A stretch of 64,000 nt of DNA from Pocillopora damicornis (Eukaryota): assembly GCF_003704095.1 (NCBI RefSeq), contig NW_020846086.1, positions 558,001-622,000 on the forward strand, given 5' to 3'. Positions 7,644 to 58,335 of this stretch are shown piece by piece (positions within the stretch are counted from its first letter, which is position 1; every line of letters begins with the position of its first letter). Position numbers and translations under genes: made by a program. Below the pieces are notes generated by a model. That model did no database searches. It was not told the DNA's origin and worked only from the letters and a program-made list of their open reading frames with translations.

Positions 7644-8435
7644 GAAGCTGAATATGTACTCAATCACATCGACTTAGCTTTGCTCTTTGAGGCAGTCCTT
7701 GAATCCGCTCCTCAATTTATAATTCAGTTGTACGCCATCATTGTTCAGGAGGAGCCAGCTACAATCATTCAAATCATTCCTCTACCTATCTCTTTCAACA
7801 CTCTGGCATGGGCCTTCACAGCCACTGATAAGGCGTCTCTTGCCGAGCGCGAAATAACACCAAGTAGCGGTGCCCTGAAGGTTAAACATCAACTAGCATT
7901 GTATGTAACTTACTTACTTCTTCTGAGCAGTCGACTGTTCACCATCTGCTATTTCACTGTCAGCTACAAGTGGGAGATCATTGGCGTGTTGATGTTTCAT
8001 TCTTGTGCCGTAGTAATAGCGACTGTTATTCAGAATAGAGACGAAGTTGGCTGTAATGCCAGCTACGTTTTCTCTACTATATTGTTTATGGGCATTCACT
8101 GTCTAAGAGATGACTTTGTTGAATTATCGATTGGTGTACAAGTGGTCTAACCATGAGTGTGTATTTCTCACATATTTTTTTTGTATTAGAAAACTTCTTT
8201 ATGATCCTGATGTTTTATTTCACTTATAACCCCAATGCTTGGTACTCTTTACCTGTCACTGTGAGTGTTTGTGTATTCAGTGTTCTTGGCTCCACAATGA
8301 GAGTTTGTGTATTTAGGTGGCTATGCAAGAAATTTGCCGGCGGTTCACCAGCTGCGAACAGCGGTGATGTGAATGCATGTGACGAACGGTGATGTGAATA
8401 CATGTGTTGTGAATTATTATGTTAGTTCAGTGTGA
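7644..8435 (+). pseudogene. XK-related pseudogene 1 (5'-deleted, frameshifted)
   Basis: Retains LFEAVLESAPQFIIQLYAI. A deletion fuses the upstream module directly to about codon 117, so the start is lost. There is a 4-nt deletion near 8142 and a ~25-nt duplication near 8385. Confidence 0.85.
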
Positions 8436-11400: not shown

Positions 11401-11816
11401 GGTCAAGTCGAGAGTCGTTGATGCCTTTTCCAAGGCGAGGTTCACTCTGCACCTAGTTTTCCTCCAAAACACGCGACAACTTAACAGTAATATTTACTAT
11501 TGTATAATTAACATTTTTGAGACGCGGAAATTTTCTATTGTACACTCCAGCTCTTCAAGACTGCGTCACAAAGAATATCCGGAGAACCAATACGTTCCCA
11601 ATATTTTGCAATAAAGTTAATACAGACGTGCAGCAATACCTCCTTCCGTGACCTTAAGAGTGAAATCAGACTAACCAAAGGAAACTTTGCAGTTTTTCAG
11701 TCGAAAGCTGAGCGCAAAAGCTTCTAATTACGAACAGTGCAGAAATCTATTTCATTAACTGAGCCTGTGTCAATATAAAGCGACTTATTACACGAACTAA
11801 CGAAACGTCCGTCGAT

Positions 11817-12938
11817 ATGAAAGAGAAACATCTTAAGTGGTACAGTCCTTTCGTGTTCCTTGTTGGAGCTATGTTAAGTTTTGCTGATCTTATCACCGAT
11901 ATACTTACACTGTTAGAATTCTACCGCGCGAATCACAAAGTATGGTTTGGTGTGGGGCTTACTTTTGTTTTATTGCCATGTTTGGCGTTTCCAGTAGTGT
12001 TCTACCTGTCGCGTACCAGTAGATCACACCTTTCACCTTCTAATTGGGCAAGAACTGCTCTTTGCGCATTGCATCCATTTTCAGCAGCCTTCGCAAGACT
12101 AGAAGCTTTACTTCTCACTCTCAAGAAATGGCGGTATGAAGATGAAATCGACCTCTACTTTAAAGACAAAGCTGAAGATCTATTCAGTTACATTGACTTA
12201 GTTGTACTCTTTGAGGCAGTCCTTGAGTGTGCTCCACAATTTATAATTCAGTTGTACGCCATCAGTGTTCAGGAGGAACCAGCTGCAATTATCCAAATCA
12301 TTTCTCTACCTATCTCTTTCCTCACTCTGGCATGGGCCTTCACAGCCACTGATAAGATGTCTCTTGTAGCGAACCATATAATGCCAAGTAGCAGTTATCT
12401 GAATGTTAAACACAAACTAGTATTGTATGCAACTCACTTGCTCCTCCTGAGCAGTCGACTGTTCGCCATCTGTTATTTCACCGTCAGCTACAAGTGGTGG
12501 GTTATTGGTGTATTAATGGTTCATTGTTGTGTGATGGTAATAGCGACTGTTATTCAGCATAGAGATAAAGTTTGCTGTAATGCCTCTAAAGTTTTCGTTA
12601 CTTTATTGTTCATGGGCATTCACAGTCTAAGAGATGACTTTACACATATTACGATAAGAGTAGACGTAAATGGTGTAAATAGGAATGTATATTTCTCACA
12701 TATTTTGTTTGTATTAGAAAACTTCTTTATGATCCTGATGTTTTATTTCACTCACCCCAACGCTTGGTACTCTTTACCTGTCACTGTGTGTGTTTGTGTG
12801 TTCAGTGTTCTTGGATCCACAATGAGAATTTGCCTATTTCGTTGGCTTAGCAAGAGACCTGCCGAACAGCTCAGCAGCTGTGATGACAGCAGTAATGTGA
12901 ATGCTAGTGTTGAGAAGTGTTATGAAAGTTCAGTATAA
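11817..12938 (+). CDS. XK-related protein (XKR/CED-8 scramblase family), 373 aa, copy A
   Basis: Intact single-exon ORF with XK motifs D-x-x-T-D in TM1, E-x-x-L-E-x-x-P-Q, SSRLFAI and LEN; multiple TM helices; ends YESSV. Confidence 0.9.
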   Translation: MKEKHLKWYSPFVFLVGAMLSFADLITDILTLLEFYRANHKVWFGVGLTFVLLPCLAFPVVFYLSRTSRSHLSPSNWARTALCALHPFSAAFARLEALLLTLKKWRYEDEIDLYFKDKAEDLFSYIDLVVLFEAVLECAPQFIIQLYAISVQEEPAAIIQIISLPISFLTLAWAFTATDKMSLVANHIMPSSSYLNVKHKLVLYATHLLLLSSRLFAICYFTVSYKWWVIGVLMVHCCVMVIATVIQHRDKVCCNASKVFVTLLFMGIHSLRDDFTHITIRVDVNGVNRNVYFSHILFVLENFFMILMFYFTHPNAWYSLPVTVCVCVFSVLGSTMRICLFRWLSKRPAEQLSSCDDSSNVNASVEKCYESSV

Positions 12939-15900
12939 TCTGGTAATGCGCCTATATTTTGTCTGTAGCTACGATTTGAATTTGAAGTGCGAAGTTAGGT
13001 TTAAGCTATGGAAACGAGTTTCGAAGTTGTGACTATCTTGTTTAACTTCCATCGCTGGACGTGCGTCGTTGGACCACTAGCCTTGGCCATGTCCCTCGCG
13101 AAAGTTTCAGGAATATTTAGCCGGCTTAAAAAACGGTTGTTCCTCGGTTGTTCCTCGGTGTATTTATAGGCTCTTGTTTTGGCTTACGTGGTCAAAGATT
13201 GATTCTGTTTATCGAAAGCATTAAGTGCATTGTTTTTCATTTTGTGAGATTCTAATATAAAAGAGTTTGGATTAGTGTTCTCACAAAAAATGTTAAATCT
13301 TCCACAGTCAGTTGACATGCATGCNNNNNNNNNNNNNNNNNNNNNNNNNNNNNNNNNNNNNNNNNNNNNNNNNNNNNNNNNNNNNNNNNNNNNNNNNNNN
13401 NNNNNNNNNNNNNNNNNNNNNNNNTCTTTGGAATGTGTATTCAAGTGCACTATGAGTCAATAACATTCTTACAATAATCACAGTTTCGTGAGGGTTCGGA
13501 TGAATAACTTTGGGTTATCATGCTCATATTTTTACCCGCGAAAACTGCTCNNNNNNNNNNGCCTTCAAAGGTCATAACTTGAAGCGTTTAGGTTTCCTTG
13601 GGCTACACTTTCTGCATACACGTTCCTTTAAAGATGAGATTCTTGTTGGGAAATAATAGTGGCGATACAAAGAATGTAATTCAGCATTTGGGACTACTGA
13701 AATGCAAAACAACATCCTTATCAGGACNNNNNNNNNNAAAATGTACATCAATATCAGCTAAGGTCTTGAAATCATAAATAATACTCTTAGGAAGTGTCAG
13801 ACTTCTAAACCACTCACTCGAAGCAATAATTGAATATTCTATTAAGTACGTAGTACTCCATTTCATTCATCCAGTATTCACTGCTTGTTACCAGGTTACG
13901 TGTTTATTTCATTCCTTNNNNNNNNNNNNNNNNNNNNNNNNNNNNNNNNNNNNNNNNNNNNNNNNNNNNNNNNNNNNNNNNNNNNNNNNNNNNNNNNNNN
14001 NNNNNNNNNNNNNNNNNNNNNNNNNNNNNNNNNNNNNNNNNNNNNNNNNNNNNNNNNNNNNNNNNNNNNNNNNNNNNNNNNNNNNNNNNNNNNNNNNNNN
14101 NNNNNNNNNNNNNNNNNNNNNNNNNNNNNNNNNNNNNNNNNNNNNNNNNNNNNNNNNNNNNNNNNNNNNNNNNNNNNNNNNNNNNNNNNNNNNNNNNNNN
14201 NNNNNNNNNNNNNNNNNNNNNNNNNNNNNNNNNNNNNNNNNNNNNNNNNNNNNNNNNNNNNNNNNNNNNNNNNNNNNNNNNNNNNNNNNNNNNNNNNNNN
14301 NNNNNNNNNNNNNNNNNNNNNNNNNNNNNNNNNNNNNNNNNNNNNNNNNNNNNNNNNNNNNNNNNNNNCAATTAGTCATTATGTTCTTGCATCATCTTTC
14401 TCTTGTGACTCTTGTGGAACTGGCCACTCGTATAAACATGTGGGATAGGGCAAGTTTTCTACTTTGAATGTGAGACAAATATTCTTCAACACGACCAACC
14501 AGCGTCATCAGTAAAACTTCTAGNNNNNNNNNNTGCTATAACAATTGAGCTTTATCAGTAGCCCCATGCAGTCTTAGACTGTATGTTTAACGATTCGAAT
14601 CAGTAACCTTCATTTTTTCCCGTTTACAGATTTTAAAACATCATGATCTTGAGACATNNNNNNNNNNCAAAGAATGGATTTGTTTTCTTGTTAAATGTAA
14701 ATAACTTTAATCCTAGATCTTGTTTTACAAACTATCAACTTGTACACAGCTTAATACTTCGAGAAGCTCTANNNNNNNNNNNNNNNNNNNNNNNNNNNNN
14801 NNNNNNNNNNNNNNNNNNNNNNNNNNNNNNNNNNNNNNNNNNNNNNNNNNNNNNNNNNNNNNNNNNNNNNNTCAATTGTTATAGCATTGAAAAGAACTAG
14901 AAGTTTTACTGATGACGCTGTTTGGTAGTGTTAAAGAATACTCGTCTCGCATTCAAAGCAGAAAACTTGCCCTATCCCACATGTTTATACGAGTGGCCTG
15001 TTGCACAAGAGTTAAAAGAGAAAGATGATGCAAGAACATAATGACTAATTGACATGCTACCAATAATTAAAGGGTCCACTGAATCCGCTCTGACCGGTTC
15101 ATCAGTCGCGAAAAAGAGTGATGTGAATGCTTTATTACATGTAAAGCTATAGATAGGAATCATAAAGTGTTTATTTTAAATCTAGACTTTTTTTGATAAT
15201 CAAAAATAAACACAAGAACGGCGAGGATTTCGATGAACACCCATCAGATGGAGATACTTCATTTACAACAGTTATTGTAGAAGGAATGAAATAAACACGT
15301 AACCTGATAACAAGCAGCGAATAGTGGATGAATAAAATAGAGCACTACGTACTTAATAGAATACCCAATTATTGCTTCGAGTGAGTGATCTAGAAGTCTG
15401 ACACTTTCTGAGAATATTCATTTATGATTTCAAGGTTTTAGCTGATATTGATCTAAATTTTTGACACTCTCCTCCTACTAAAGGTGTTGATTTGCATTTA
15501 ATTAGTCCCAAATGCTAAATTACATTATTTGTATCGCCATTATTTTCACAACAAGAATCCCTGTTTAAAGGAACGTTCATGCAGAAAATTTAGACCAAGA
15601 AAACCGAAAGGCTCCAAGTTATGACCTTTGAAGGTTGCGTTCTTAGTGCAATTTTCGCGGGTAAAAATACGAACATGATAACCCAAAGTTATTTATCCGA
15701 CCCTCACCAAATTTTAATTTTTTTTCAAGAATGTTATTGACTGTACTTGAATACACATTTTAAAGAAAAGTAAGTCTAACACTCCTTCTACAAATATTGG
15801 TTTATGAATTAAGATTTTGACCTGTTATGATTTAGACTTTTCCCTCTCTCGTCGTGCGACAAATGTTGATTTGCATTTAACCGACTCTTCAAGGTGAGTA

Positions 15901-26276: not shown

Positions 26277-28598
26277 TCCTTGGTGCCTTTTGTAAAAACG
26301 TGTTGCGGTCTGCAGCTATTTTTCTCATCATTGTAACCCGACCTACTTGCACGGCGGAGGACTTGGTACAAATTGCTAGATGTAATAGATACTTTTAAAT
26401 TTGGAACTCAGAATGTAGAGGGAATTAATAAAACACGACAAGCTGTGAATAATGGAGGATATTATAGAGTAGATTGAAGATACTTATTAAAATACTCGAT
26501 TTTAGTTAGGGGTTAGTGGTTTAGAGGTTTGATACTTTCAACGAGTTTAGGATTATTAATTTAGGACTTTGACCTATGTTGCTCTAGAATCAGACACTCA
26601 TCCTAAAAAAGTTGTTGATTTGCATTTAGCGCAGCACTTTAAGATGTCTAGTTTCTCGCAGTATTTAATTCTCATATAAAGCTGTGTACAAATAGATAGT
26701 TTGTAAAACAAGAACTAGAATAAAAGTTATCTACATTTAACATGAAAACAAATCCATTCTTTGAGTACTGAGAATGTCTCAAGATCATGGCGTTTCAAAA
26801 TCTGTAAATGGGAAAACTGAAGGTTACTGATCCGAATCGTTAAACATACAGTCTAAGATAACATGTGGCTACTGATATAGCTCAATTTTTATAACATCGA
26901 AAAGAACTAGAAGTTTTCTGATGTCGCTAGATGGTAGTGTTGAAGAATATTTATGTCACATTCAAAGCAGAAAACCTTCCGCATCCCTCATATACACATA
27001 TTGATGAGTGGCCTGTCACACAAGAGAAAGATGATCCAAGAATATAGTGACTAATTGACATGCAACTAATGATTCAATGATAACAAACAATCATATTAAC
27101 AATAACAATAAAAATGATAACCATAGTAATAGTAATAATAATTTAGAGGGGCTATTTTAAGAACCTCACTATTCCTCTATTCTCAAAGCCCCAATAATGA
27201 TTAAGCTACGATTCTTTAATTTTGCCTGTCAACTATAAATTATTTCTGATTTCATAACAACTCCATTTTTGTAAAACTTTTGTTTCTCACAACAAGACGT
27301 TCCGTGTTTAAGGATATTCTGCAATTTCGCCATCTCGCCATTCTACCGTTCTATCATCTTATTAACTAGAAAAAAAAGAGGAGAAGTCTTGTAACGAAGC
27401 TTTTTGCCGCCGCGTTTAGCATTTAAGTTGTGCGATAAATTATTCGTACGGGAAACTGATGGCTGGAAGATCAATTTCACCTGGCTGTCGGTAGTTAATT
27501 TCCAAATCGGACATGGTCTATCTATCTTGGTTGTCACGGGGTAATTACCTTTTCTTAAAGTGCATACTATGTGCGTTTTTTTTTCTCAATCTCTTTTACA
27601 AGAAGACGGACTAAGTACTGGAAAGCAACAGACTCAAAAAGGTTGGACGATACACGGCTGTGCCTCGTATAAGGAATAGGGAAGTTTAAATCCATCCTCA
27701 GTCCCTTAATTCGACATTCAGTGTGCTCAATTTTTCTGTAGCAGCCTGATCGAGGGAAGAGAATAACAAGCAAGAATTTTGGTTAAGTTTATTAAAAATA
27801 AAAAAAAAATAGGGAAAATTTGTTATTTACATTGATATTTAACAGGTAACTAAACAATTATGGTTGTTTTATATTTAAATGTTGTCCAATACTCATAATT
27901 TATTGGGTGGTGTTAATATTTAACGTGTCAGTGAGGTAAATTGCTCAAATTTAAGGAATATGGTGCTTTACCTCAAATTATGCGGCGAAGAATAGAGTCA
28001 TTATCACCATGGACGACCCTGATGACAACGTGAGGCGTTGCGTGAGTACCGCACTAAAATGTTTTATGTTCTGACTGACAGAATTTGTACGGTAAGGTCA
28101 GTTCACTGGATTGATTTTGTCAATCGTTCAAACTCATTTTTCCATATGTGTCACTTTTACGTGAAAAAACAGTTGAATATTTCGCACATCCTAAATGAGC
28201 ATTTAGCAGGCGATCGTTTAGAAGCTAATTGCAATTACTTACCGTAAAATAACTATGATGTTCACCTGAATATACTTATGAGGACTATTTGAGACTCGGA
28301 AGTTTTGATTTTAAAATGAGCATTCCAGCTCTCCCAGACTGTGTAGGAAAAACAATCTGAGAACCGATCAGTTTCCAGGATCTCGTATGTTACACTAAAA
28401 TTGATACAGACGACAAACTACTTTCCATGATCTCAAGAGTGAAAACAGACTAAACTAAAGGAAACTTTGCAGTTTTTCAGTCGAAAGCCTGGCGCAAAAG
28501 CCTCTGATTATCACTGCAGCAATCTATTTTAGTACTGTAACTGAACCTATGTCAATACAGGTCGATCTGCAAGGCGAACAAACGAAAAGTCCGTCGAT

Positions 28599-29717
28599 AT
28601 GGAAGTGAAAGATCTTACGTGGTACAGTCCTTTCGTGTTCTCAGCTGGAGCTATTTTAAGTTTTGTTGATCCCATCACCGACATACTTACATTGGTAGAA
28701 TTCTACCGCGCGGATCACAAAATATGGTTTGGTGTGGGGCTTACTTTTGTTTTATTGCCATGTTTGGCGTTTCCAGCGTTGTTTATCCTGTTTCGTGCCC
28801 AATTAACTGCTTCACCCTCTGGTTGGGCAAAAACTGCTCTTTGTGCATTTCATCCATTTTCAGCAGCCTTCGCGAGAGTAGAAGCTTTTCTTTTCTGTCT
28901 CAAGAAATGGTGGTCTGGAGGTGAAATCAACCCGGTCCGCTCCGTAAAAGCTGACAATGTACTCTATTACATTGACTTTGTTGTGCTCTTTGAGGCAGTC
29001 CTTGAGTCCGCTCCACATTTTATAATTCAGTTGTACGCCATCAGTGTTCAGGAGGAACCAGCTTCAATTATCCAAATCATTTCTCTACCGATCTCTTTCC
29101 TCACTCTGGCATGGGCCTTCACAGCCACCGATAGGAGGTCTCTTGCCATGCGCAAAATAATATCCTGGAGCGGTGACCTGAATGTTAAACACCAACTGGC
29201 ATTGTATGTAACTCACCTACTTCTCCTGAGCAGTCGACTGTTCGCCATCTGTTATTTCACCGTCAGCTACAAGTGGTGGGTTATTGCTGTGTTAATGTTT
29301 CATTCTTGTGTGGTATTAATGGCGAAGTTTATTCAGAATAGAGACAAACTTGAATGTTATGCCTGCTGCGTTTTCTCAACTATATTTTTCATGGGCATTC
29401 ACTGTCTAAGAGACGACTTTGTAGAATTTTCGTCAAAAGTAGCAATAATTGGTCCAACCTTGATTGTGTTTTTGTCACATATTTTGTTTGTATCAGAAAA
29501 CCTTTTTATGATCCTGATGTTTTTTCTCTCTCATCATTCCAACGCTTGGTACTCTTTACCAGTTACTGTTTGTGTTAGTGTGTTCAGTGTTCTTGGCTCC
29601 ACAATGAGAATTTGCTTACTTCGTTGGCTAAGCAAGAAACCTGCCGGCGGTTCACCAGCTGCGAGCAGCGGTGATGTGAATGCATGTGTTGCGAAGTATT
29701 ATGTTAGTTCAGTATAA
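28599..29717 (+). CDS. XK-related protein, 372 aa, copy D
   Basis: Intact ORF; ESAPH replaces the ESAPQ motif; ends YYVSSV. Confidence 0.9.
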   Translation: MEVKDLTWYSPFVFSAGAILSFVDPITDILTLVEFYRADHKIWFGVGLTFVLLPCLAFPALFILFRAQLTASPSGWAKTALCAFHPFSAAFARVEAFLFCLKKWWSGGEINPVRSVKADNVLYYIDFVVLFEAVLESAPHFIIQLYAISVQEEPASIIQIISLPISFLTLAWAFTATDRRSLAMRKIISWSGDLNVKHQLALYVTHLLLLSSRLFAICYFTVSYKWWVIAVLMFHSCVVLMAKFIQNRDKLECYACCVFSTIFFMGIHCLRDDFVEFSSKVAIIGPTLIVFLSHILFVSENLFMILMFFLSHHSNAWYSLPVTVCVSVFSVLGSTMRICLLRWLSKKPAGGSPAASSGDVNACVAKYYVSSV

Positions 29718-30505: not shown

Positions 30506-31031
30506 AGTAGCAGTGACCTAAATGCTAAACCGTCACCAAGTAGCACTGTATGTAACTCATTTACTTGTCCTGAGCAGTCGACTGTTCGCCATCTGTTATT
30601 TCACTGACAGCTACAAGTGGTGGGTTATTGCGGTGTTAATGTTTCATTCTTGTGTGGTAGTAATAGCGACTGTTATTCAGAATAGAGACAAAGTTGACTG
30701 TGATGCCTCTAATGTTTCCTTAGCTATATTGTTTATGGGCATTCACTGTCTAAGAGAATACGACTTAGTAGAATTATCGATAAGTGTAGAAGAAATTGGT
30801 CACCATGAGACCACCATGAGAGTGTTTTCCTCACATATTTTGTTTGTATTAGAAAACTTTTTATGATCGTAATGCTTTATTTCACTTATCACCCCAATAC
30901 AGTTGGTACTCTTTACCTGTGTGTGTGTGAGTTTGTGTGTTCAGTGTTCTTGGCTCTACAATGAGGATTTGTTTACTCTTTCGGCGAAGAGGGAAAACTA
31001 TCGCCGTTTCGCCAGTGGCGAACAGCAGTGA
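30506..31031 (+). pseudogene. XK-related pseudogene 3 (3' half only)
   Basis: HQVALYVTHLLVLSSRLFAICYF...; frameshifts; preceded by an inverted piece of the 5' leader. Confidence 0.85.
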
Positions 31032-32078
31032 GATGACTATAGAAGCAGATTTAAAACAATAGAATGTCACCTCATTTTGTCGTAAATTAAACAAGCGCTA
31101 AAACGGCGACGATGTAAGTTGATACACAGTAGATGTTTATTCATGAGTAATTGTAATGGCAAAAGGAGTAAAATAAACACGTAACAAGTAGCGAATAGTG
31201 GATGGATAAAATAGAGTGCTACGTACTTAATACAATATTCAGTTTTAGTTTGGAGTGAATGGTTTAGAAGTCTGACACTTTTTACGAACTTTCCATAATG
31301 ACTTAAAGATTTGTGCTGATGTTGATCTAGATTTGTTCCCTTCCTCATACTTAGCCAGATATTAACTTGTGTTTGGCTTCGGTGTCCCTTTAAATTGTGT
31401 TACTTCCTGCAGGATTCATTTGGGTTTAAAGCTCTGTAGGAGGCGTCATTTTGTAAAATGAAGAGTTGGAATAAAAGTTAGCGAGGAGAAAAGATTACTT
31501 GGGAAAATTTGTTTGCAATGATATGTTAAAGATAACTGTTTAAATCATGATTGTTGAGAGCAAATGTGGCCAAAAATGAAACATTTTCAAAATATGGTCA
31601 CCCCCCCTCACTCAGAAGTGATTGAGAACGAAAAGCGCACATGTCCTCACAGAATGCTCGTGAATATGTTCAAAGAAACAAAACTGACTCAAAGATTGCT
31701 TATCCTCTCAAAGGGGTTCGTGGAAAATATATTTTGGGTTTCTTGGATACACTCTAAAATTGTTCCGACGAGTTTTCGTCATAAACCTAAGATAAATTTT
31801 CAGTTATTTTATAATACTTGCTGTTGCATTTGAAAGTTTAAGCTCCAAAGTAAGGACAAGAGATCGTTTAAAGCACTCAAGAATTCCCCGAGTTTTTTCC
31901 CTTTTAATTCCGGTGAAAAGTTGGCCGACCTTTACATAAAATGTTCGACGCAAAGTTGAGAGAGCGAAACGAAAACAACGATGACAAGTTTTTCTGCGCA
32001 AGGAATTTATTTCCAAATAAATTGGATCCCAAGAATATGGTGTTAATACAAATATATTGAGATACGACCAATCCAAGG

Positions 32079-35000
32079 CTATCTTCTCTGGACTTTGTTC
32101 ATCTTACGTTTGCCGGCAAACATATGTTTAGGCATTTTGGTAGCGATCTTTCTGTCAGCTTCACCTGTGGAACAAAAACAACGCATGATAATCTGTAACA
32201 GTGTCAAATATTGAATAAGGTTTATTATATTATATATTATTATTTATTATTATAAGGTTTCTGAGACAGAATCTATCAAACATTTGATTGAAAGAGAGTC
32301 TGGATACGGACATCATCGCAACGAACCGCTAGAGTAAGAGAAGGAGATGGGGAATGCGAAAAAGGGACGGAAGAGGAAGAGCGGCCTGGAGGGAAGGAAG
32401 AAAAAAAGAAGACGACGACGGGCAAAAGGATACAGAGGAGGGCGAAACAGTGGACGAAGAACGAAGAAGGACGGGAAGAGTGGGAAAGAGTCGAAGAAAA
32501 AGGGAGAGGCGACGAATAAGGAGGCAAATGGCTGCACACAGTAGCCACTCTAAATGAATCATTTACACTTTCCTGGTGACCACAGGGTTTCCCTAAATAA
32601 AACCGACAGTTATCATGAAAAAAGGCATTTCTTTCGTCCACCAAAATCCTACCTGCTTTGCCCATACGGTTGATGCCTCTTTGAACAACCTTTGACAGTT
32701 TCTTTGCTTTCTTCTTTTTCTATTTTTAAACAAAAAAAGTCAGGAATTAACACGAGAAAACTCTTACACAGTACACTTCAGGGAGCCACAACCTACTTTA
32801 GTTCGAGACGAGATAAAATGTTCAATTATCATGAGGCGTCCTTTCACATTTACCCTTCATTCATCAGCTCGTTTCGTTTGACCAGTGTGCCGCCAATGCA
32901 TGTTTTTTGGCGAGCGTAAGGTCAAAAATGCCTCCGGTTTTAGGTTTAAACCGAAATGCAACTAAACGTTTGAAATACGCTACCTTTTGCGCAAAAAAGT
33001 AGCCTTCTTTTTTACTCACCTTTGGTTCCAAAAAGGTTTAATGCTGAATGTTTTTGCTGTATGTTTTTTTAATGAAATTAATTTCATTTGATTCATCTTA
33101 GTTGTCAAAATATTTTTTAGAAGATTTAACGTAATTTACATGGTGAGTACTTATAAATTACATGTTGTTTGTTCAATCGAAGATAAGTTAACAGCTTTCA
33201 TTACCGTCATCATCAGTAATATTTATCAGTCGAATTTATAGTTCACTTATGCGAGGGAAAACTAATTGAAAGGGACAATGAAAAGTCTGGAGAGTTCAAT
33301 AATCTCGTTATTTTCATCACATGAATATTTCCTTCAACCAAGAAGTACAGAAACTAGAGCGCAAGTGGAACCAGAAAAAGATTGTTAAAACAGTTTCAGC
33401 CTCCCCTTTCGCACAACTTCTCACCTCGGGAGAACTAATGCCTGATTGGTCACGTGGTGGACGTGATAAGCTGCGTGCGCCGTTGCTGGCTGCTCTCTTC
33501 CTTTTACGGCTCATCGGGGTCTGAGAACGAGATCTTTTTTCGGCTACGTCTCCCTGGAAACAACCAACGAATCAATCAAACTACTGTATCTATAGACTAT
33601 TCTATCAATTAAGAGATGCGACCAAAAATAACAATAAACAAACGAAATACTTAAAAGTGAACTGACATTTTCTGGAATGAAAGACGTCGACAATGCATTC
33701 TACCTGTTCTCACTGATACTGCAGAGCAAAACACACATATAAAGGCAAAAACAAAACAAAAACAAGGAATCAAGCAATAAACATCAACAACAACAACAAC
33801 AACAACAGCAACAACTCTGTAGCCCACCTCTTCAATGCCTTCCATCTCTACATCTCCACCAACCTCTTCTGTGATGTTTTTTCTGCTGCGAGCGGCTTGA
33901 GCCTTAACGTAGAGGAAACAAAACAGATATCAGACAGTAGGACACATGTATCTATATGATAAAACTACAAAGAAAATCTAACATAACGCTACGAATGCAA
34001 TCTAAGTGAAAGTAAGAGAGGACCAGCTTGATAGGAAGTTCCCTTTGTTGGTTGGTAATCAATCAGGTTGCAAGACAACTAAAACTCTCTAACTACCTAG
34101 TGCCGTCTAAAATCTTGTGACGGTCCTCGGCAACGACAAAATCGTCGGAGAATTTTAAGTGTGTCATTCAAAATTTTGTAGTTATAATCATAGTATTTCA
34201 AATTAAAGGAGGATTTTTCCACTATCAGATAGGCCGGAAAGAATTTCCCACAGACCTTTGTTAGCAAGATCTATTGACGTCGAAGTATTTGAAAAATATA
34301 TTAAGAGCTTTATCACATATATTAACAACAGTCCATAAGGTTTACTCTGAAAGTTAAAAATGATGAGGAAAATGAGCGCAAACAACAAAATTAGAATGCA
34401 CTGGTCGTTAGCAAAAATCCTGCCGTGTTAAGGTTTTCTTCAGAGAGAAAGCATCAAATAGAAGAGATAATCCACAAATTAAAGTGCAATAAAAGGCCTG
34501 AAAAAACTGACCCTGAAAAAAACCGACCTTCAAAAATGTAGAACGTGGCAACTTCGCCCTGTTGTTTCTCGGTTTCATCTCACGATGTGCTTGGACGATC
34601 AGCTTCTTTTTCTCTCGAATTCTACGAAAAAATATATTAAGAAAATAATCAGAAAAAAAGTATTTTTAAAACTAGACAGGGTTGAATTCGAATCCACAGA
34701 AACTCGAGTCACATGCTAACTCAAACTGATATTATTTCCGAGTATAAGATTACATTTACCCCACACATTTCTTGAGAATTTTACCCTCAAAATTGAATTA
34801 CTTCAAATAACGCGAGGTAATATTTTCCCATCTGATAACTTTCTTCACAGTTTTTCCTTTCAGATAAATCGCCTCGCTAAAGTTTAGTAATTAAGTTTCT
34901 TTTTTGTATTCTTTTCACACCTTAAGTTTCGTTTTCTTGGAAAAACATCTTTCAGTTCTAAGCTTTTTCATAGTTCAACTCTATTCAAATCCATTGCTTG

Positions 35001-38000
35001 AAACTAAATGTATAAATTAAAATTTGTGATCAATACCAATTGTAGTTGTTCCGCCTCCCACAACGTATTTAAATCGATCTGAATCTGTCACCTAATCTCG
35101 CTCAGTGTATTACATGTACTTCTGGATGTATGATAGCATCCACTCATAAAAACGGAGTTACGAATTCGCGTCGATGCATGGCTTATTTGAAGTGAAACAA
35201 TTCCGAAATCATATAAAATGCATGAAGAACAATCTAAGAACTCACTGCTGTGCTGTTTTCCTGATTTCCTCTTGTTCAGGGGTTAGTTCTTCCTGCAAAA
35301 ATAAAAATAAAAAATAATGATAATACATAAAAAATAGGAAAAGAGGGAAAAAGGCAACAGCACAATACCTCTGTAGAGATTTGTCTTCGGTTGTTATGGT
35401 TTCTTCGATTAGAGAATTCTTATTTAGGAGTTAAAGACTGACCGTTATCACAGTAGAGAAGTGTTTCACTAAATACCACTGATTGAATATCCACTGAGTG
35501 AATATCTATAATTATAATCTGTCCGTCACTCACAGGCTCTGAGTCGTAAAGTCCTGCAGCTTCACGCAGCTCTTCCTCTTTCTCCAACTCTTCTAGTTTC
35601 TGCAACAAACGACACAAATTAGTATGTACGTGAAGTAAAAAGTGAAAAAAAAACATTTTTGGAGTGCATGCTCAAATGAAGGAGTGTCACTCTAATAACT
35701 GACCGCGACCTTTGCCTTTTTTTTTGTTCGATACTTTATCCAGGTATCTCGGTATGGAGAAATTTAGGTTTACCACTGCTTCCACCAACATTCATTCTGA
35801 AGTTTCGAGAGCAGTCCTTAATCAAGGCGTTAACCGTTTGCTCATTACTTATTTCAGACTTAAAGCCTTCAACATCGAGTCGACACTTCATATAGAGTAT
35901 TGGGAATCGAGGGTGTCAAAATGTGACACTCGTTTCTCGCGAGTCCAGCGTGTCGACATCCTCCTCACGCGATACTCGTGCCACTTGAAAAAGCAAACTC
36001 TAACAAATAAACTTGTACCTGCACTTTAGTTAAGAATTAAACCTGGTTTCCTCACTAACATATCATCCAAAAATACCACTTAAAATTCACCTTCATAATG
36101 TCTGGGTCGATAAAGTCAGCTACATTCTTTCCTAGGTAGATCTCGGGTATAATGTCATGTTTTTCCTCATCGTTCTTCAAGTCCCAGTGTTGCCGCAAGT
36201 CCATATAATAATATTCTCCCAGTTCGTTCTCAAGATCCTTTGCAAGTTTCCTCTTAGGTTCCGCTCCTTCCACTGACATGGCTTGTCTCTTTTCAAGAAC
36301 AGCCTAAGGGTACAGTTAACCAAACAGTTACAAAAAGTTGGGTTACACCTCGTTGTAAAATACAACGTTTATGCAGCGAATATGGCTAGTCGCACGAGAG
36401 GAGTTACTTCAGGTGCGGATCAAGAAATTACAAGTGAATACTGCTGATATTCTGCCGGCGATGAAGTCGACTTACAGTTATCTTGCTTCGCCTCATGCAG
36501 CGTTATGCTCTACTGCAATTGCTGAGTGATTTTAGCAGCTGTAATTGGCGCATTTATGTTTCCTGAGATAATCGAAATGCGCCAATCACAACTAAATGTA
36601 GGTTTTCGATTGGGAAGATGGGATATACGGTCTATTAAAATATTCATACTACATATGAAAACCACTAGCTTCAGTCTTAGAGACAAAAATTGCAAAAGTA
36701 CGACTCTTGTTTAATTTCATTCAAACTCCTTCGGAATAACAGACCCCTTAACTAGTCAATCGTAAAACAAATCCCGAATCACTATGCTCTTTGTTTTTTA
36801 ATATGCATTTACAATTTTGCATCATGACTATACACAATACAAACATGTAAATGAACTGCTGGAGCACAATTTACAAATAATTTACCTGTGGTATGCATGG
36901 AGGTCTTTCTTTCTGATCTCGCTGGGTTGGCATGGCAACATGAAGTCTGTTCATGACATCCTTAGCTTTTTTACTTTTCATTTTAACCTCAACCCTCTGA
37001 GCCAAGAGCTGATCACATGCCTCAGTTTTGACTGTCATTATTCCTTCCTCACTAACGGTGCTCATGGAAAGAAGTGTCACTCCTAATAAAATAATAATAA
37101 TAATAATAATAATAAAATAAAACAAATAGTAAAACCCACAATAAACTCAACTCAAATGTTGTGCCACTGAGTCCAGGAATCAAACCCAGGCTACAGGAGA
37201 AGGAGATTATCATTCTTGCCACTGTACACTTCTTTTTTTCACACTACATATCACATTGATCAAACTGAAGCTTCAACATTCACCCCCCCCCCCCCCCCCC
37301 TCCAATGCAACCCCACGGCATTTAAACTTTTGAAGATTGGTTTCCCGGGACAAAAATTGCATTCAAATGACCCACTCAGGTACAATTTTTTTCATTGAAT
37401 AATTCTTTGTGTGATCAACTAATGTTGTAGAATTTGGCAGCACTATGTATTAGTTTATTGGTGCATATGTATAGTTGTTTCCTTGTACACTCAATTGGAC
37501 TCTTTATCTCTAAACTTCTCCATAGTTAAAATTAGAACACATGTACCGCTTCAGATTCCTTACCCTACTCAGGCAAGGTTTTAATTTCCCACCCCCAGGG
37601 CACAACAAACAGTCATGCTGAGAAAATCATGAGAAAATCCAACTTCTGTGTGAGAGATTATTCAGCATTAATTGATTTCCAGTTGATTTTTTGCGATAAG
37701 TGACAGATGATTGAACAATAGGATCATATCATATATTTAAAAATGAGAAAGACCAGCGCATGAGACAAGAATGGTGAAAGAGAGAGGGAGACCAAGTTGA
37801 CTTTATAAATAAAACATGAAGTTTTGGCAGATTCTTGGCAGATTCTTAAGTCCCATTTCCGACACAGATGTGCAATGGATTTCAAAGTATTATAAGTAAC
37901 AGACAAGTTTTCATTGGGAGAGATAACCTTGACAAACCTTAATAATGAAGGGTGATCACATGCATGAAGCTGTACATGTGTGTCTACATGGCCACATAAG

Positions 38001-55135: not shown

Positions 55136-56458
55136 TTTTTAATAATTTACGTGAGAAACGCATCCTAGAAAGTCAAGACGGACAAAATTTTGGCAACCCA
55201 TGCTATTTGCAGTTTGCAGTCTTGTTACAACTCAGCACTCGTGTTCCACGAAAAATGCACTCGGTTTCAGCCAATCAGATGCGCATAATTTTTTCATGTA
55301 TTACAACTTGAAATCGGACGCAGAGAACAATTTGCATGCAAGGGCTGGGGCTTGAAGTAATGGCGTTATTGTTTCTTTCTTGTTTTGTATTCTTTTATTC
55401 CCTTTATTTAAAATTGAAACGATAGTAATTGCCTGAGAAGCTTTTAGGACAAACAAATTGTTTCCCACCTCGCCGCTATAGCTATAGGCCTCATTACATC
55501 TGTATTTTCAATTTATTTTCACACGAAAAGAAAGAAAAAATCGCATTTTTCAAGGTATAGTGGATAACTTAGCTTGGAAATAGAATCAGGAATGGTCGTG
55601 ACGACAAGAAACCAAAAGACTCGGTAAGGTCATGCAAGCGGTTTGCTGTAAAACTTTCTTTTACTTTTTGCGAAATATTTTTCCAGCTATGAACGTAATC
55701 TTTTTCTTAATTGAGCCACATTTCGAGAGAACGGGGTTAAACGTATTTGAAAATTGCAGGTACCACAAACTCTACGGTGATGTGTATGGAAAACGAGCGA
55801 AAAATTAAGGATGAGGAAAAATTAAACAAGATCTCGATCCCTGTATATGAAAAAAAGGGGCGAATAAAGTGAGCTGACTAAAAGTCAGATAAGATAAGAT
55901 AAGCTGTTGTTTGAAAAAGGATACCTAGGATAGGTATTGAAGATTTCATGAACGGCTAATGGAGCACACACCTCCCAAAAAAGGTTTTTATCCTTACTGA
56001 ACTGGCTGATTTATTTCATCTTATAAATTATCGCCTCATTTATCGAAAGGACGTATGTATCATTACAATTTAATAAAACAAGTTTTAAGTCTAAGGGTAA
56101 CATGAAGTGGAAATGTTATGGAAACGACGAGGTGAAGGAATGACATGAACATATAGTTTGTTTTTTTTTTCTTTTGGCACATGAGAATCAATTGCAGTAA
56201 AAGATGTCCAAACTTTCGATGTACATCACAGTAAAATTTCTGGAAAGTCATTGACTAAGGTTTAAATATTTCACATTCATTCAAGGGTGTTTCGTATATC
56301 TTAAGATGGATAACTGCTAGCAACTTCAGCTGGGAACCAAACCGACTAGCAATCTAAGAGGAAAGGTTTTTAGACGGAAGCCGAAAGTTTGATCTTTGCG
56401 ATATCTTGAGTATTATCTCTCTTTCAGATAAGAATTAAAAATACAAAAGTTGAGCAAC

Positions 56459-58335
56459 ATGACCGGTCTTCAATTTTCCGTCATCCGAGTTATCTTCATA
56501 CTGACGCAGCTTTCCAAAGTGACCACGACGAATTGTGGGAGAGAATCGTCTATCCATGGCATGATGCTTCGCGGTCACACATTCAAGACTCTTGAGGCTA
56601 AAAGCCTCTCAGAATGTGTGCAGGAATGCAACGAAGACGACAAATGCCAAAGCTTAAACCTTGTCCCATTAAAGGACATTTGTGAGTTGAATAAACGAAC
56701 AAAGGAGGCTAGGCCAGAGGACTTTGTCACAAATAAAGAATGCCTTTACGTGAGACGATGGAAAAAGAGAGGTAACTAATAACAGATTTCGCAAATCTGG
56801 GACATACGTGTTTATTGTGCGAAATGATTTCGGATTCGGAGATAAATTCGAGTCACGAAATTCTTTTGCAACAGATGGTTCGACAACATGCAGTTTTTAT
56901 TTATTCTCGTCCCTGTTTTTTTCCTTTTTTCCTCTTATTTTTTTTTATTTTCCCTCTAGTTCCTCTGGGTTCTATCCCTGAGTTACCCGCAGAATCTTGT
57001 GCAGAGATAAAACGAAGTGAAGGAGCAGCTATGAGAAGCGGTGGATTCTGGATACAATCGTCTGTTAATTCAGGAAAAGCGAGTTTGGTAAATTGTGATG
57101 TCGGCGAATCAAATGGTGAGTACTTGTCTAAGCTGCCGCTGTAAACTGCACACACTTTCTCTCCCACTCTATGGCAGAAACTTGTAATCACCGGAAGCGT
57201 CCACTTTGTAACTGCCAAAATTTTTTCAACGAGCAAATTCTCCTCACAAGTTGAATACACTATCTGGAAAGCGGATGATAATCATCACTTGTTCTACATC
57301 ACGTAGATATGATATTTTCGACATTCAATTTTTACCTGGTTTACTTCAAAATTGATGGATAAAAATTTTCTTTCATTGACCTTCAGTAATGACTTCTTGA
57401 TCTCTCAGGGTAGTGTCCAGTTCAGCGTTAGGGTCATTTTACGACACATTCCATTACTGCTCTATTTTTTTAAGCTTCAACCACAATTTTGCCGTTTTGT
57501 CGTCTCAGATATCGATGAATGCAAAAGTAGATCTTTACATGGTTGTCATAGTGATGCTGTGTGTCATAATACCGTGGGCTCATACAAATGTACCTGTAAA
57601 GAGGGATTCTTTGGAAATGGAAAAACAAGTTGCTCACCAGTAGGTAGGTATATGATTTGAAAAAGCCATAAAATAAAAGAAAAAGGGCATGCATTTTTTC
57701 GGAATGAAATTACGAATTTGGGCCGCTAAGTTAGAGTAAATAAGTCAGAGACCTGTCGTTATTTGTCACCTAGGGGGGAGGGGGGGGCGTGGGTGGACCA
57801 CATGGTTTTCATGGGGAATGGAGCGGGGATCAATCTTAATGGCTTCTTTATATGTTTTGAAAGTCTCTGAGAGAAAACGTCCTGCATCAATTTTAGCCAG
57901 GAAAAGTCACCGAGCAATCTTAAAACACCTTGAAAGGGCTTTTACATCTTTTCTTTTCATATCGTTGGCCTAAATTTAGGCTGTGTTGGGTACAAGTGGT
58001 TCACAGAGGCGGACAGACGCCGTTCTTTTCCTGCGAATGAAATCAAGTGTGACCGTCTAAAAGAGAGATCGTGGTACCGATTCAGCGAGGAGTCTGGAAC
58101 TAAGATGGCGACAACGTGTGTTCCTCCTTACAGATGCAATACACATGCGCCAAGCTGGCTGAACGGATTACATCCCGAGGAGCATGAAGGGATTGTGACC
58201 AGACAAGTGTGTTTCCACTGGTCAAATCATTGCTGTCATTTTACAACTATCATCAGGGTCAGGAATTGTGGTTCATTTTACACTTATGAGCTTGGTCCTA
58301 TAAATTTATGTCATATTCGCTATTGCGGTGAATGA
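56459..58335 (+). CDS. Probably secreted mosaic protein: PAN/Apple + short FReD/COLFI-N-like module + Ca-binding EGF + uromodulin/GP2-type D8C (D10C) domain
   Basis: Exons 56459-56771, 56960-57115, 57509-57643, 57980-58335; all introns phase 1. Motifs: C-x3-C...CQSLN...CELN (PAN); PAESCAEIK...SGGFWI...VNCD; DIDEC...CHNTVGSYKCTC; WYRF...CVPPYRCNTHAPSWLNG-x-HP...VCFHW...CC...VRNCG-x-FY-x-Y-x-L...RYC. Confidence 0.88.

Follow-up and report, generated by a model that had tools for sequence, protein, structure and literature searches.

The window analyzed here, 64,000 nucleotides of coral DNA (Pocillopora damicornis, contig NW_020846086.1), contains a tandem array of intronless XK-related (XKR; PF09815) genes, with four intact copies and four broken pieces (counted within the window). 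We found that the predicted cytoplasmic face of the encoded membrane proteins evolves under positive selection. The expansion of XK-related genes in corals has been tabulated before; in the literature that we searched, we found no report of the selection on the cytosolic face, which is replicated in another clade and is statistically robust. With moderate confidence, we propose that the copies are likely scramblases that share a core and whose intracellular control surfaces have been repeatedly re-tuned, most likely in conflict with intracellular microbes or their proteins. The intact copies are:

11817..12938, plus strand: XKR copy A, an intact single open reading frame (ORF) of 373 amino acids, with a tail ending in -SSV
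18593..19642, plus strand: XKR copy B, an intact single ORF of 349 amino acids, almost tail-less, with a deletion of 6–7 residues after transmembrane helix 2 (TM2)
24340..25521, plus strand: XKR copy C, an intact single ORF of 393 amino acids, with a longer, different tail
28599..29717, plus strand: XKR copy D, an intact single ORF of 372 amino acids, which is our numbering reference and was modelled over residues 1–352

The initial annotation of this window had described four intact copies, and this was borne out: all four are single ORFs and match PF09815 (88–119 bits against a cut-off of 24.8, at model positions 1–335), and the eight peptide blocks that it quoted were all located in the copies. 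Its coordinates for the array, 11817..29717, are right for the intact copies but leave out the broken copies at 7644–8432 and 30506–31038. It also described the copies as near-identical, even at many silent sites, and this is incorrect. Amino acid identity is 70–75%, with proportions of silent differences (pS) of 0.17–0.20 and of replacement differences (pN) of 0.13–0.17. The copies differ at 0.09–0.14 of fourfold sites and at 0.14–0.15 of the third positions in helices. Non-coding DNA between the units differs at 0.171 (14,005 aligned sites, including overlapping pairs). Silent-site divergence is thus roughly equal to spacer divergence, so the silent sites are not frozen.

As the annotation had claimed, differences between the copies cluster in five blocks. 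These are listed by their positions in copy D; omega is the ratio of replacement to silent substitution rates.

28785..28829, plus strand: block 1, cytoplasmic, after TM2 (residues 63–77), omega 6.6 over 9 gap-free codons, indel-prone; in the other copies (plus strand) at A 12003–12050, B 18779–18805, C 24526–24570
28902..28976, plus strand: block 2, cytoplasmic, from re-entrant helix 1 to TM3 (residues 102–126), omega 3.7, indel-free; A 12123–12197, B 18878–18952, C 24643–24717, plus strand
29133..29192, plus strand: block 3, cytoplasmic, after TM4 (residues 179–198), omega 1.7; A 12354–12413, B 19109–19168, C 24874–24933, plus strand
29334..29384, plus strand: block 4, the loop after TM6 and the start of re-entrant helix 2 (residues 246–262), omega 2.7 for the loop (246–255); A 12555–12605, B 19310–19360, C 25078–25128, plus strand
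29409..29465, plus strand: block 5, cytoplasmic, from RDDF to TM7 (residues 271–289), omega 2.5; A 12630–12686, B 19385–19441, C 25153–25209, plus strand

The topology comes from an AlphaFold model of copy D (residues 1–352), which used an alignment of 138 diverse sequences and reached a pLDDT of 90 and a pTM of 0.90. (A first model, from an alignment of close homologues only, had a pLDDT of 45 and was discarded.) The eight-helix fold and the two re-entrant helices of XKR proteins are present in the model, and the cytosolic location of the termini is taken from XKR8. Foldseek aligned the model to XKR4, XKR8, and XKR9 with TM scores of 0.68–0.72, and VIA gave Z scores of 25–29 to five XKR structures over 312–327 residues, with the next match at 9.6. 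Sequence identity to the solved XKRs is only 15–20%; a single-sequence search of the solved structures found no matches, but profile searches did. We assigned codons to classes (183 transmembrane, 39 re-entrant, 19 extracellular, and 98 cytoplasmic) from the model's helices and the alignment to XKR8; the boundaries of these classes are approximate and were set after the variation had been seen. Sidedness is by homology to XKR8 (PMC8500837). With the model following the XKR8 fold over 325 residues, all five blocks are predicted to face the cytosol or to sit at the inner end of one of the re-entrant helices, which agrees with the initial annotation. The positive-inside count, 17.2 lysines or arginines in 116 cytoplasmic residues versus 2.0 in 20 extracellular residues, does not help to assign the sides.

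Among the four copies, 70 of 98 cytoplasmic codons are variable. The corresponding counts are 49 of 183 for transmembrane codons, 17 of 39 for re-entrant codons, and 7 of 19 for extracellular codons, and numerous codons have two or three differing bases. We also compared 124 sequences, namely the window copies and the best 120 of 1023 homologue matches. When the 346 positions are ranked by variability, the top 40 comprise 34 cytoplasmic, 4 re-entrant, and 2 transmembrane positions and no extracellular ones, and each loop occurs in 25–51 types. The cytoplasmic bias that had been noticed is real, but variation is not confined "almost only" to that face: in the inner helix halves, 33 of 90 codons are variable, and the re-entrant helices vary too.

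Codon likelihood models were fit with our own code, not PAML, with naive empirical Bayes. Over 341 gap-free codons of the four copies, M2a improved on M1a with a 2ΔL (twice the log-likelihood difference) of 50–60 for all three trees and both frequency models, and M8 improved on M8a by 57–60, with about 11% of sites having omega near 8. By class, omega was 2.5 for cytoplasmic codons (p = 2e-10), 0.47 for transmembrane codons (0.68 in the inner half and 0.28 in the outer half), 1.0 for re-entrant codons, and 0.8 for extracellular codons (not different from 1). Giving each class its own silent rate left the cytoplasmic omega at 2.4 (p = 2e-4). The silent rate in cytoplasmic codons was then 1.07 times that of the helices, which argues against mutational hot spots or homogenised helices. 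Cytoplasmic codons analyzed alone gave 2.3 (p = 4e-4). The initial annotation's suggestion of positive selection is upheld, with a cytoplasmic omega of 2.3–2.5 that exceeds 1 even against its own silent sites.

A cytoplasmic omega above 1 survived allowing double and triple substitutions (2ΔL = 23), removing two indel-prone stretches, leaving out each of the four copies in turn, and three shifts of the class boundaries (1.65–2.8). Without a tree, all six pairs had omega above 1 (1.6–3.9). None of 120 null simulations reached the observed value; all of these included rate hot spots, and 60 also included multiple hits. Non-coding pseudo-codons had an omega of 0.88–1.07, and just 12 of 394 non-coding 60-base windows (3%) reached a divergence of 0.30. 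We consider positive selection on the cytoplasmic face to be very probable.

A metagenome scan gave 11 loci with 45–53% identity, and seven ORFs from these served as a replicate and a control. (We excluded L003, L006, and the first copy of L008, all 99–100% identical to L002; the second copy of L008, which is interrupted by an internal stop; and L010 and L011, which are partial.) In an Orbicella-type clade of four tandem-type copies, one of which clusters with a protein from Orbicella faveolata, cytoplasmic omega was 3.3 (p = 1e-12), and it was also 3.3 against its own silent rate (p = 3e-5). In a conserved clade of three copies, cytoplasmic omega was 0.45, which is below 1 (p = 3e-5), without an M2a signal. 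Two of the conserved copies (L001 and L005) have NOG1 exons immediately downstream, and these match the NOG1 exons in the window; no second XKR copy lies within 3.8 kb upstream at L001, and one further away is possible. In a quick tree, the window, Orbicella-type, and conserved groups are separate clades, each on one side of a branch (SH-aLRT 99–100), so the radiations look separate; this tree does not settle how the three are related. At the protein level, the ratio of cytoplasmic to helix divergence was 3.1–5.4 in eight multi-copy long contigs (seven further ones and one from P. verrucosa) versus 1.9 in 14 conserved relatives.

The control clade also has a distinctive tail. In its members (L001 3873–5063, L004, and L005), the tail is acidic and includes the stretch I-E-N-D-S, which resembles an initiator-caspase site, and 13 of 14 relatives end in -PTVWL; the tandem copies have neither.

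The residues of the lipid path are kept in part. In XKR8, the charged residues of this path are D26, D30, K134, E137, E141, and R183, with W45 as the gate (PMC8500837). The equivalents of D26 (D24), E137 (E132), E141 (E136), and W45 (W43) are present in all 124 sequences and that of D30 (D28) in 123, so four of the six residues that are essential for scrambling by XKR8 are kept, as is the gate tryptophan. R213, the equivalent of XKR8 R214, is kept in 123–124 of the 124. The caspase-3 site (DxxD) was found in 2 of 124 tails and in none of the four window copies; a looser motif, Asp followed by a small residue, was found in 56 of 124. As for the plug helix, copy B is nearly tail-less, and the well-modelled part of copy D ends at residue 352 and so does not bear on the docking of such a helix. 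A prediction of the complex between the body and the tail of copy A, in which alignments were not used, gave no verdict (score 0.00).

Under our proposal, the array is a birth-and-death family of intronless genes with the XKR fold, shaped by duplication, loss, and lineage-specific radiations. The outer lipid-path residues stay fixed and the predicted cytosolic surface is under positive selection; the copies would scramble lipids. As there is no DxxD site and the tail appears to be dispensable, activation would be via the cytosolic face instead of by caspase-3 cleavage; control of XKR proteins at this face has been described (PMC10938166, PMC9436381). Short, loop-sized exchanges between paralogues may add variation. 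The binder might be foreign. It could be an antagonist, with the loops changing to escape it, or a ligand, which might open the scramblase so that phosphatidylserine is exposed on an infected or damaged cell. A further reading, possible but doubtful, is that corals have made the XKR fold into a diversified innate-immune family. The cytosolic face of each paralogue would then be matched to its own microbial or viral protein inside the cell, which it would recognize or evade, and would directly gate the exposure of phosphatidylserine independently of caspase-3. Sensor and executor would be combined in one membrane protein, and the expansion would have occurred separately in several coral families.

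Signs of such exchanges are seen in database proteins. In two alleles of copy A, block 3 is that of another paralogue, and in three alleles of copy C, block 2 is of a distinct type. One of these proteins, P0128, returns to the A type within about 2 codons, which is too short for the usual assembly switch, so exchange of a loop between paralogues is likely, judging from protein sequences only. In the whole-gene chimeras (P0001, P0002, P0135, and P0179), the switches coincide with the longest stretches of identity between copies; these proteins might be assembly errors and were not used as evidence. Because of database chimeras, the count of 1023 homologue clusters is inflated. Among the four intact copies, a gene-conversion mosaic, which the initial annotation had named as a concern, was not detectable: 37 informative sites were unclustered (p = 0.89–0.93), and the best run test, for A and B, was marginal (p = 0.016 among six pairs). 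Tests that included the broken copies were confounded by poorly aligned ends. Separately, a broken Orbicella-type copy (L008 1101–1952) contains block 3 twice, first in a form that matches the neighbour L002:222–1358 and then in its own form. This doubling might have come about in assembly or by an unequal exchange of the loop.

Several results weigh against our proposal. First, the lipid path is not entirely intact: the equivalent of XKR8 K134 is valine in 114 of 124 sequences and valine, leucine, or methionine in all of them, and position 179, the equivalent of R183, is lysine or arginine in 119 of 124 and is glutamate in copy B. Second, even in the conserved clade the variability of cytoplasmic segments is about double that of helices, so part of the side bias is generic to the XKR fold; what is special is only the excess above 1. 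The extracellular class (19 codons, omega 0.6–0.8, not different from 1) is too small to test for side bias. Third, the helices are relaxed as well (omega of 0.47 here and 0.9 in the Orbicella-type clade), so loss of constraint is part of the picture. Fourth, just three of the six single pairs pass a 2ΔL of 4.9, and two of the six miss significance. Fifth, divergence is 0.22–0.35 in the 54 bases before the ATG, similar to cytoplasmic first and second positions (0.25–0.36), and 0.15–0.29 in the next 235 bases of the 5' flank. Sixth, variable sites are not enriched in the groove that holds the tail in XKR8 (1.45 bits versus 1.28 bits for the whole face; groove residues are from PMC10938166, which describes them as well conserved in XKR8, and were mapped by profile alignments that are uncertain by a few residues). 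Finally, the alleles of each copy are 94–99% identical. Across 31 selected proteins (excluding whole-gene chimeras), polymorphism is only weakly enriched on the cytoplasmic side, affecting 37 of 395 sites there, 37 of 677 in the helices, and 8 of 79 in the extracellular segments. This low diversity per copy is unlike a strongly balanced immune locus.

We also considered adaptive specialisation without conflict, in which the cytosolic face was re-tuned once per duplication, to host regulators or cell types, and then fixed. The regulators could be kinases, VPS13-like lipid bridges, or PDZ scaffolds; we rate the explanation as a whole as rather unlikely. It would fit the similarity of the alleles and the weak cytoplasmic enrichment of their polymorphisms. 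Also, the last three residues fit [ST]-x-[VIL], which we take to be a PDZ-type motif, in 70 of 120 homologues. And mammalian XKRs differ mainly in their cytosolic parts, where they bind host partners (PMC9436381). However, specialisation does not readily explain why two clades that expanded separately both show omega above 1, why there are so many types of each loop, why copies are frequently broken or lost, or why alleles show loop-sized exchanges. We infer that conserved host partners would seldom drive such a pattern.

A third idea is that the copies are no longer scramblases and that the fold has come to serve as a variable receptor, or as a channel, for ligands in the cytosol. The loss of the K134 equivalent, of the caspase site, and of the plug tail would fit, as would the low identity to solved XKRs, and Noel et al. 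(PMC10236652), judging by inspection, classed the family as "cell surface/transmembrane receptor". However, this seems very unlikely given that the equivalents of D26, D30, E137, E141, and W45 are nearly invariant, and three of these correspond to acids that are needed in XKR4 (the equivalents of D26, D30, and E141; PMC12334663). Furthermore, human XK lacks a caspase site as well, and is controlled by VPS13A via a cytosolic loop (PMC9436381). An atlas search found XK-related clusters only, and no fused sensor domain was found in 4173 long candidates, which is a weak test that covered proteins of 969–2765 amino acids.

A further alternative is that constraint was relaxed and that localized mutation hot spots, or gene conversion in patches, made omega above 1 an artefact. 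This is very unlikely and was already largely refuted by the within-block test: the high helix omegas, the four broken pieces, the divergence before the ATG, the many codons with multiple differences, and the reliance on four sequences and our own code would all fit, but cytoplasmic omega is 2.3–3.7 against its own silent rate, that rate barely exceeds the helices', the simulations, the non-coding windows, and the unclustered informative sites all speak against it, and the same code gave 0.45 for the conserved clade.

Of known proteins, the coral copies most resemble XKR8, XKR9, and XKR4 (PF09815; PDB 7DCE/8XEJ, 7P14/7P16, and 9BOJ), which they match along their whole length, with eight helices plus re-entrant helices and with the acidic lipid-path residues and the gate tryptophan. 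They differ in being intronless and in tandem, in the absence of DxxD from 122 of 124 tails, in having short or absent tails in some cases, in the valine at K134, and in the positive selection on the cytosolic face. XK/XKR2, from the complex with VPS13A (PDB 9YG5 chain D), also has a profile match to the coral copies (E = 6e-18). However, its VPS13A-binding feature is not seen in the model of copy D, which has no strands and has coil at 107–111 followed by a helix at 112–150, where XK has a long insertion.

The array very likely belongs to the coral orthogroup OG0000710 of Noel et al. 2023 (PMC10236652, Additional file 2), on the basis of the names of the matches and not sequence membership. 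OG0000710 is XK-related and contains 88 genes from 11 corals, with 71–76% in tandem and no genes in Acropora millepora or Galaxea. Noel et al. favour birth and death with rare conversion. In the available portion of their main text, we found no mention of XK-related proteins or scramblases, and no analysis of selection, topology, or function of the family. The P. damicornis genome paper had no matches in five text supplements. In the literature on corals, on invertebrate expansions, and on XKR evolution (with subscription journals mostly uncovered), we found no report of selection on coral XK-related genes.

MHC class I, plant NLRs, and TRIM5 evolve by birth and death, with tandem copies, pseudogenes, a selected binding face, and short exchanges between paralogues. 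The coral array differs from these in that the face that varies belongs to the fold of a membrane enzyme and lies on the cytosolic side, and in that each copy has low allelic polymorphism. SERINC3/5 offer an analogy only: they are multi-pass proteins that disturb lipid asymmetry and are antagonised by HIV-1 Nef at an intracellular loop (PMC10359404), but their fold is unrelated to XKR (no significant structural match), they do not form a tandem array, and whether lipid flipping explains their restriction of HIV-1 is disputed (PMC11118262). Also by analogy only, Ebola virus uses scrambling activity (10.1101/2020.03.16.994012).

The remaining features of the array and its flank are:

7644..8432, plus strand: broken copy E, without the start and the region from TM1 to re-entrant helix 1, with a frameshift near 8140
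20084..20640, plus strand: local duplicate of a copy's 3' end and 3' flank, 78% identical to 19525–20082
22896..23610, plus strand: broken copy F, N-terminal part not detected, with a deletion in block 2, a frameshift, and a stop
30506..31038, plus strand: broken copy G, 3' half only, frameshifted
32006..38384, minus strand: 3' exons of NOG1/GTPBP4 (NOG1, PF06858; NOGCT, PF08155), outside the array, a synteny anchor

The NOG1 gene extends further up, beyond these coordinates, and the array ends about 1 kb from its last exon. Spacers and flanks are homologous between copies, so the duplication unit is genomic; no conserved ORF of at least 75 amino acids, as expected for a partner gene in each unit, was found in the spacers. 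Copy A is 98% identical to a P. verrucosa "XK-related protein 7-like" (P0121), and copy C is 99% identical over 370 amino acids to P. verrucosa XK-related protein 8 isoform X1 (P0150). The length of copy B is matched by five database proteins that are 98–99% identical to it. A database protein of 170 amino acids (P0143, 97% identical to copy E) begins where copy E begins, and full-length relatives exist (P0005 and P0136), which suggests that the 5' deletion is a presence/absence polymorphism. RNA contigs from one run span all four genes and their 3' flanks, but they cover the spacers as well, so we did not count coverage of the genes as proof of transcription.

The 54-base stretches before the ATG (11763–11816, 18539–18592, 24286–24339, and 28545–28598) are indel-free and have no in-frame stops in the four copies, a good splice acceptor lies about 85–120 bases 5' of the ATG, and some database paralogues are annotated with an N-terminal extension from this stretch. 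We considered these 18 open triplets as a coding extension, but they are likely non-coding: all four copies have an upstream in-frame stop, and the frame is shifted in L009. Between copies A and B, 13325–16700 has many N gaps and inverted near-copies (13425–13917 versus 15281–15766, and 14369–14548 versus 14872–15051), which suggests an inverted fragment of a unit or a scaffolding problem. An 80-base XKR remnant (17155–17233, 78% identical to D 29003–29082) is just before a very high-copy repeat (about 17563–18113). Elsewhere in the window are a multi-exon gene with a CAP domain (GAPR-1-like, PF00188) and an internal repeat (46488–49729, minus strand) and a secreted PAN / EGF-like / uromodulin D8C gene (56432–58332, plus strand; PF00024 and PF23283).

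XKR proteins belong to a family that flips lipids and so marks dying cells, and they are known as slowly changing scramblases that are gated by caspases or by partners. A fixed lipid path combined with a selected cytosolic face, in two coral lineages, points to an unrecognized conflict at the "eat me" step, which involves membrane lipids, in a reef-building animal, with a conserved syntenic relative as the control for selection on coral XKRs. The natural variants of the loops could bear on how XKR proteins may be gated without caspases and on how corals cull cells that are infected or that bear symbionts.

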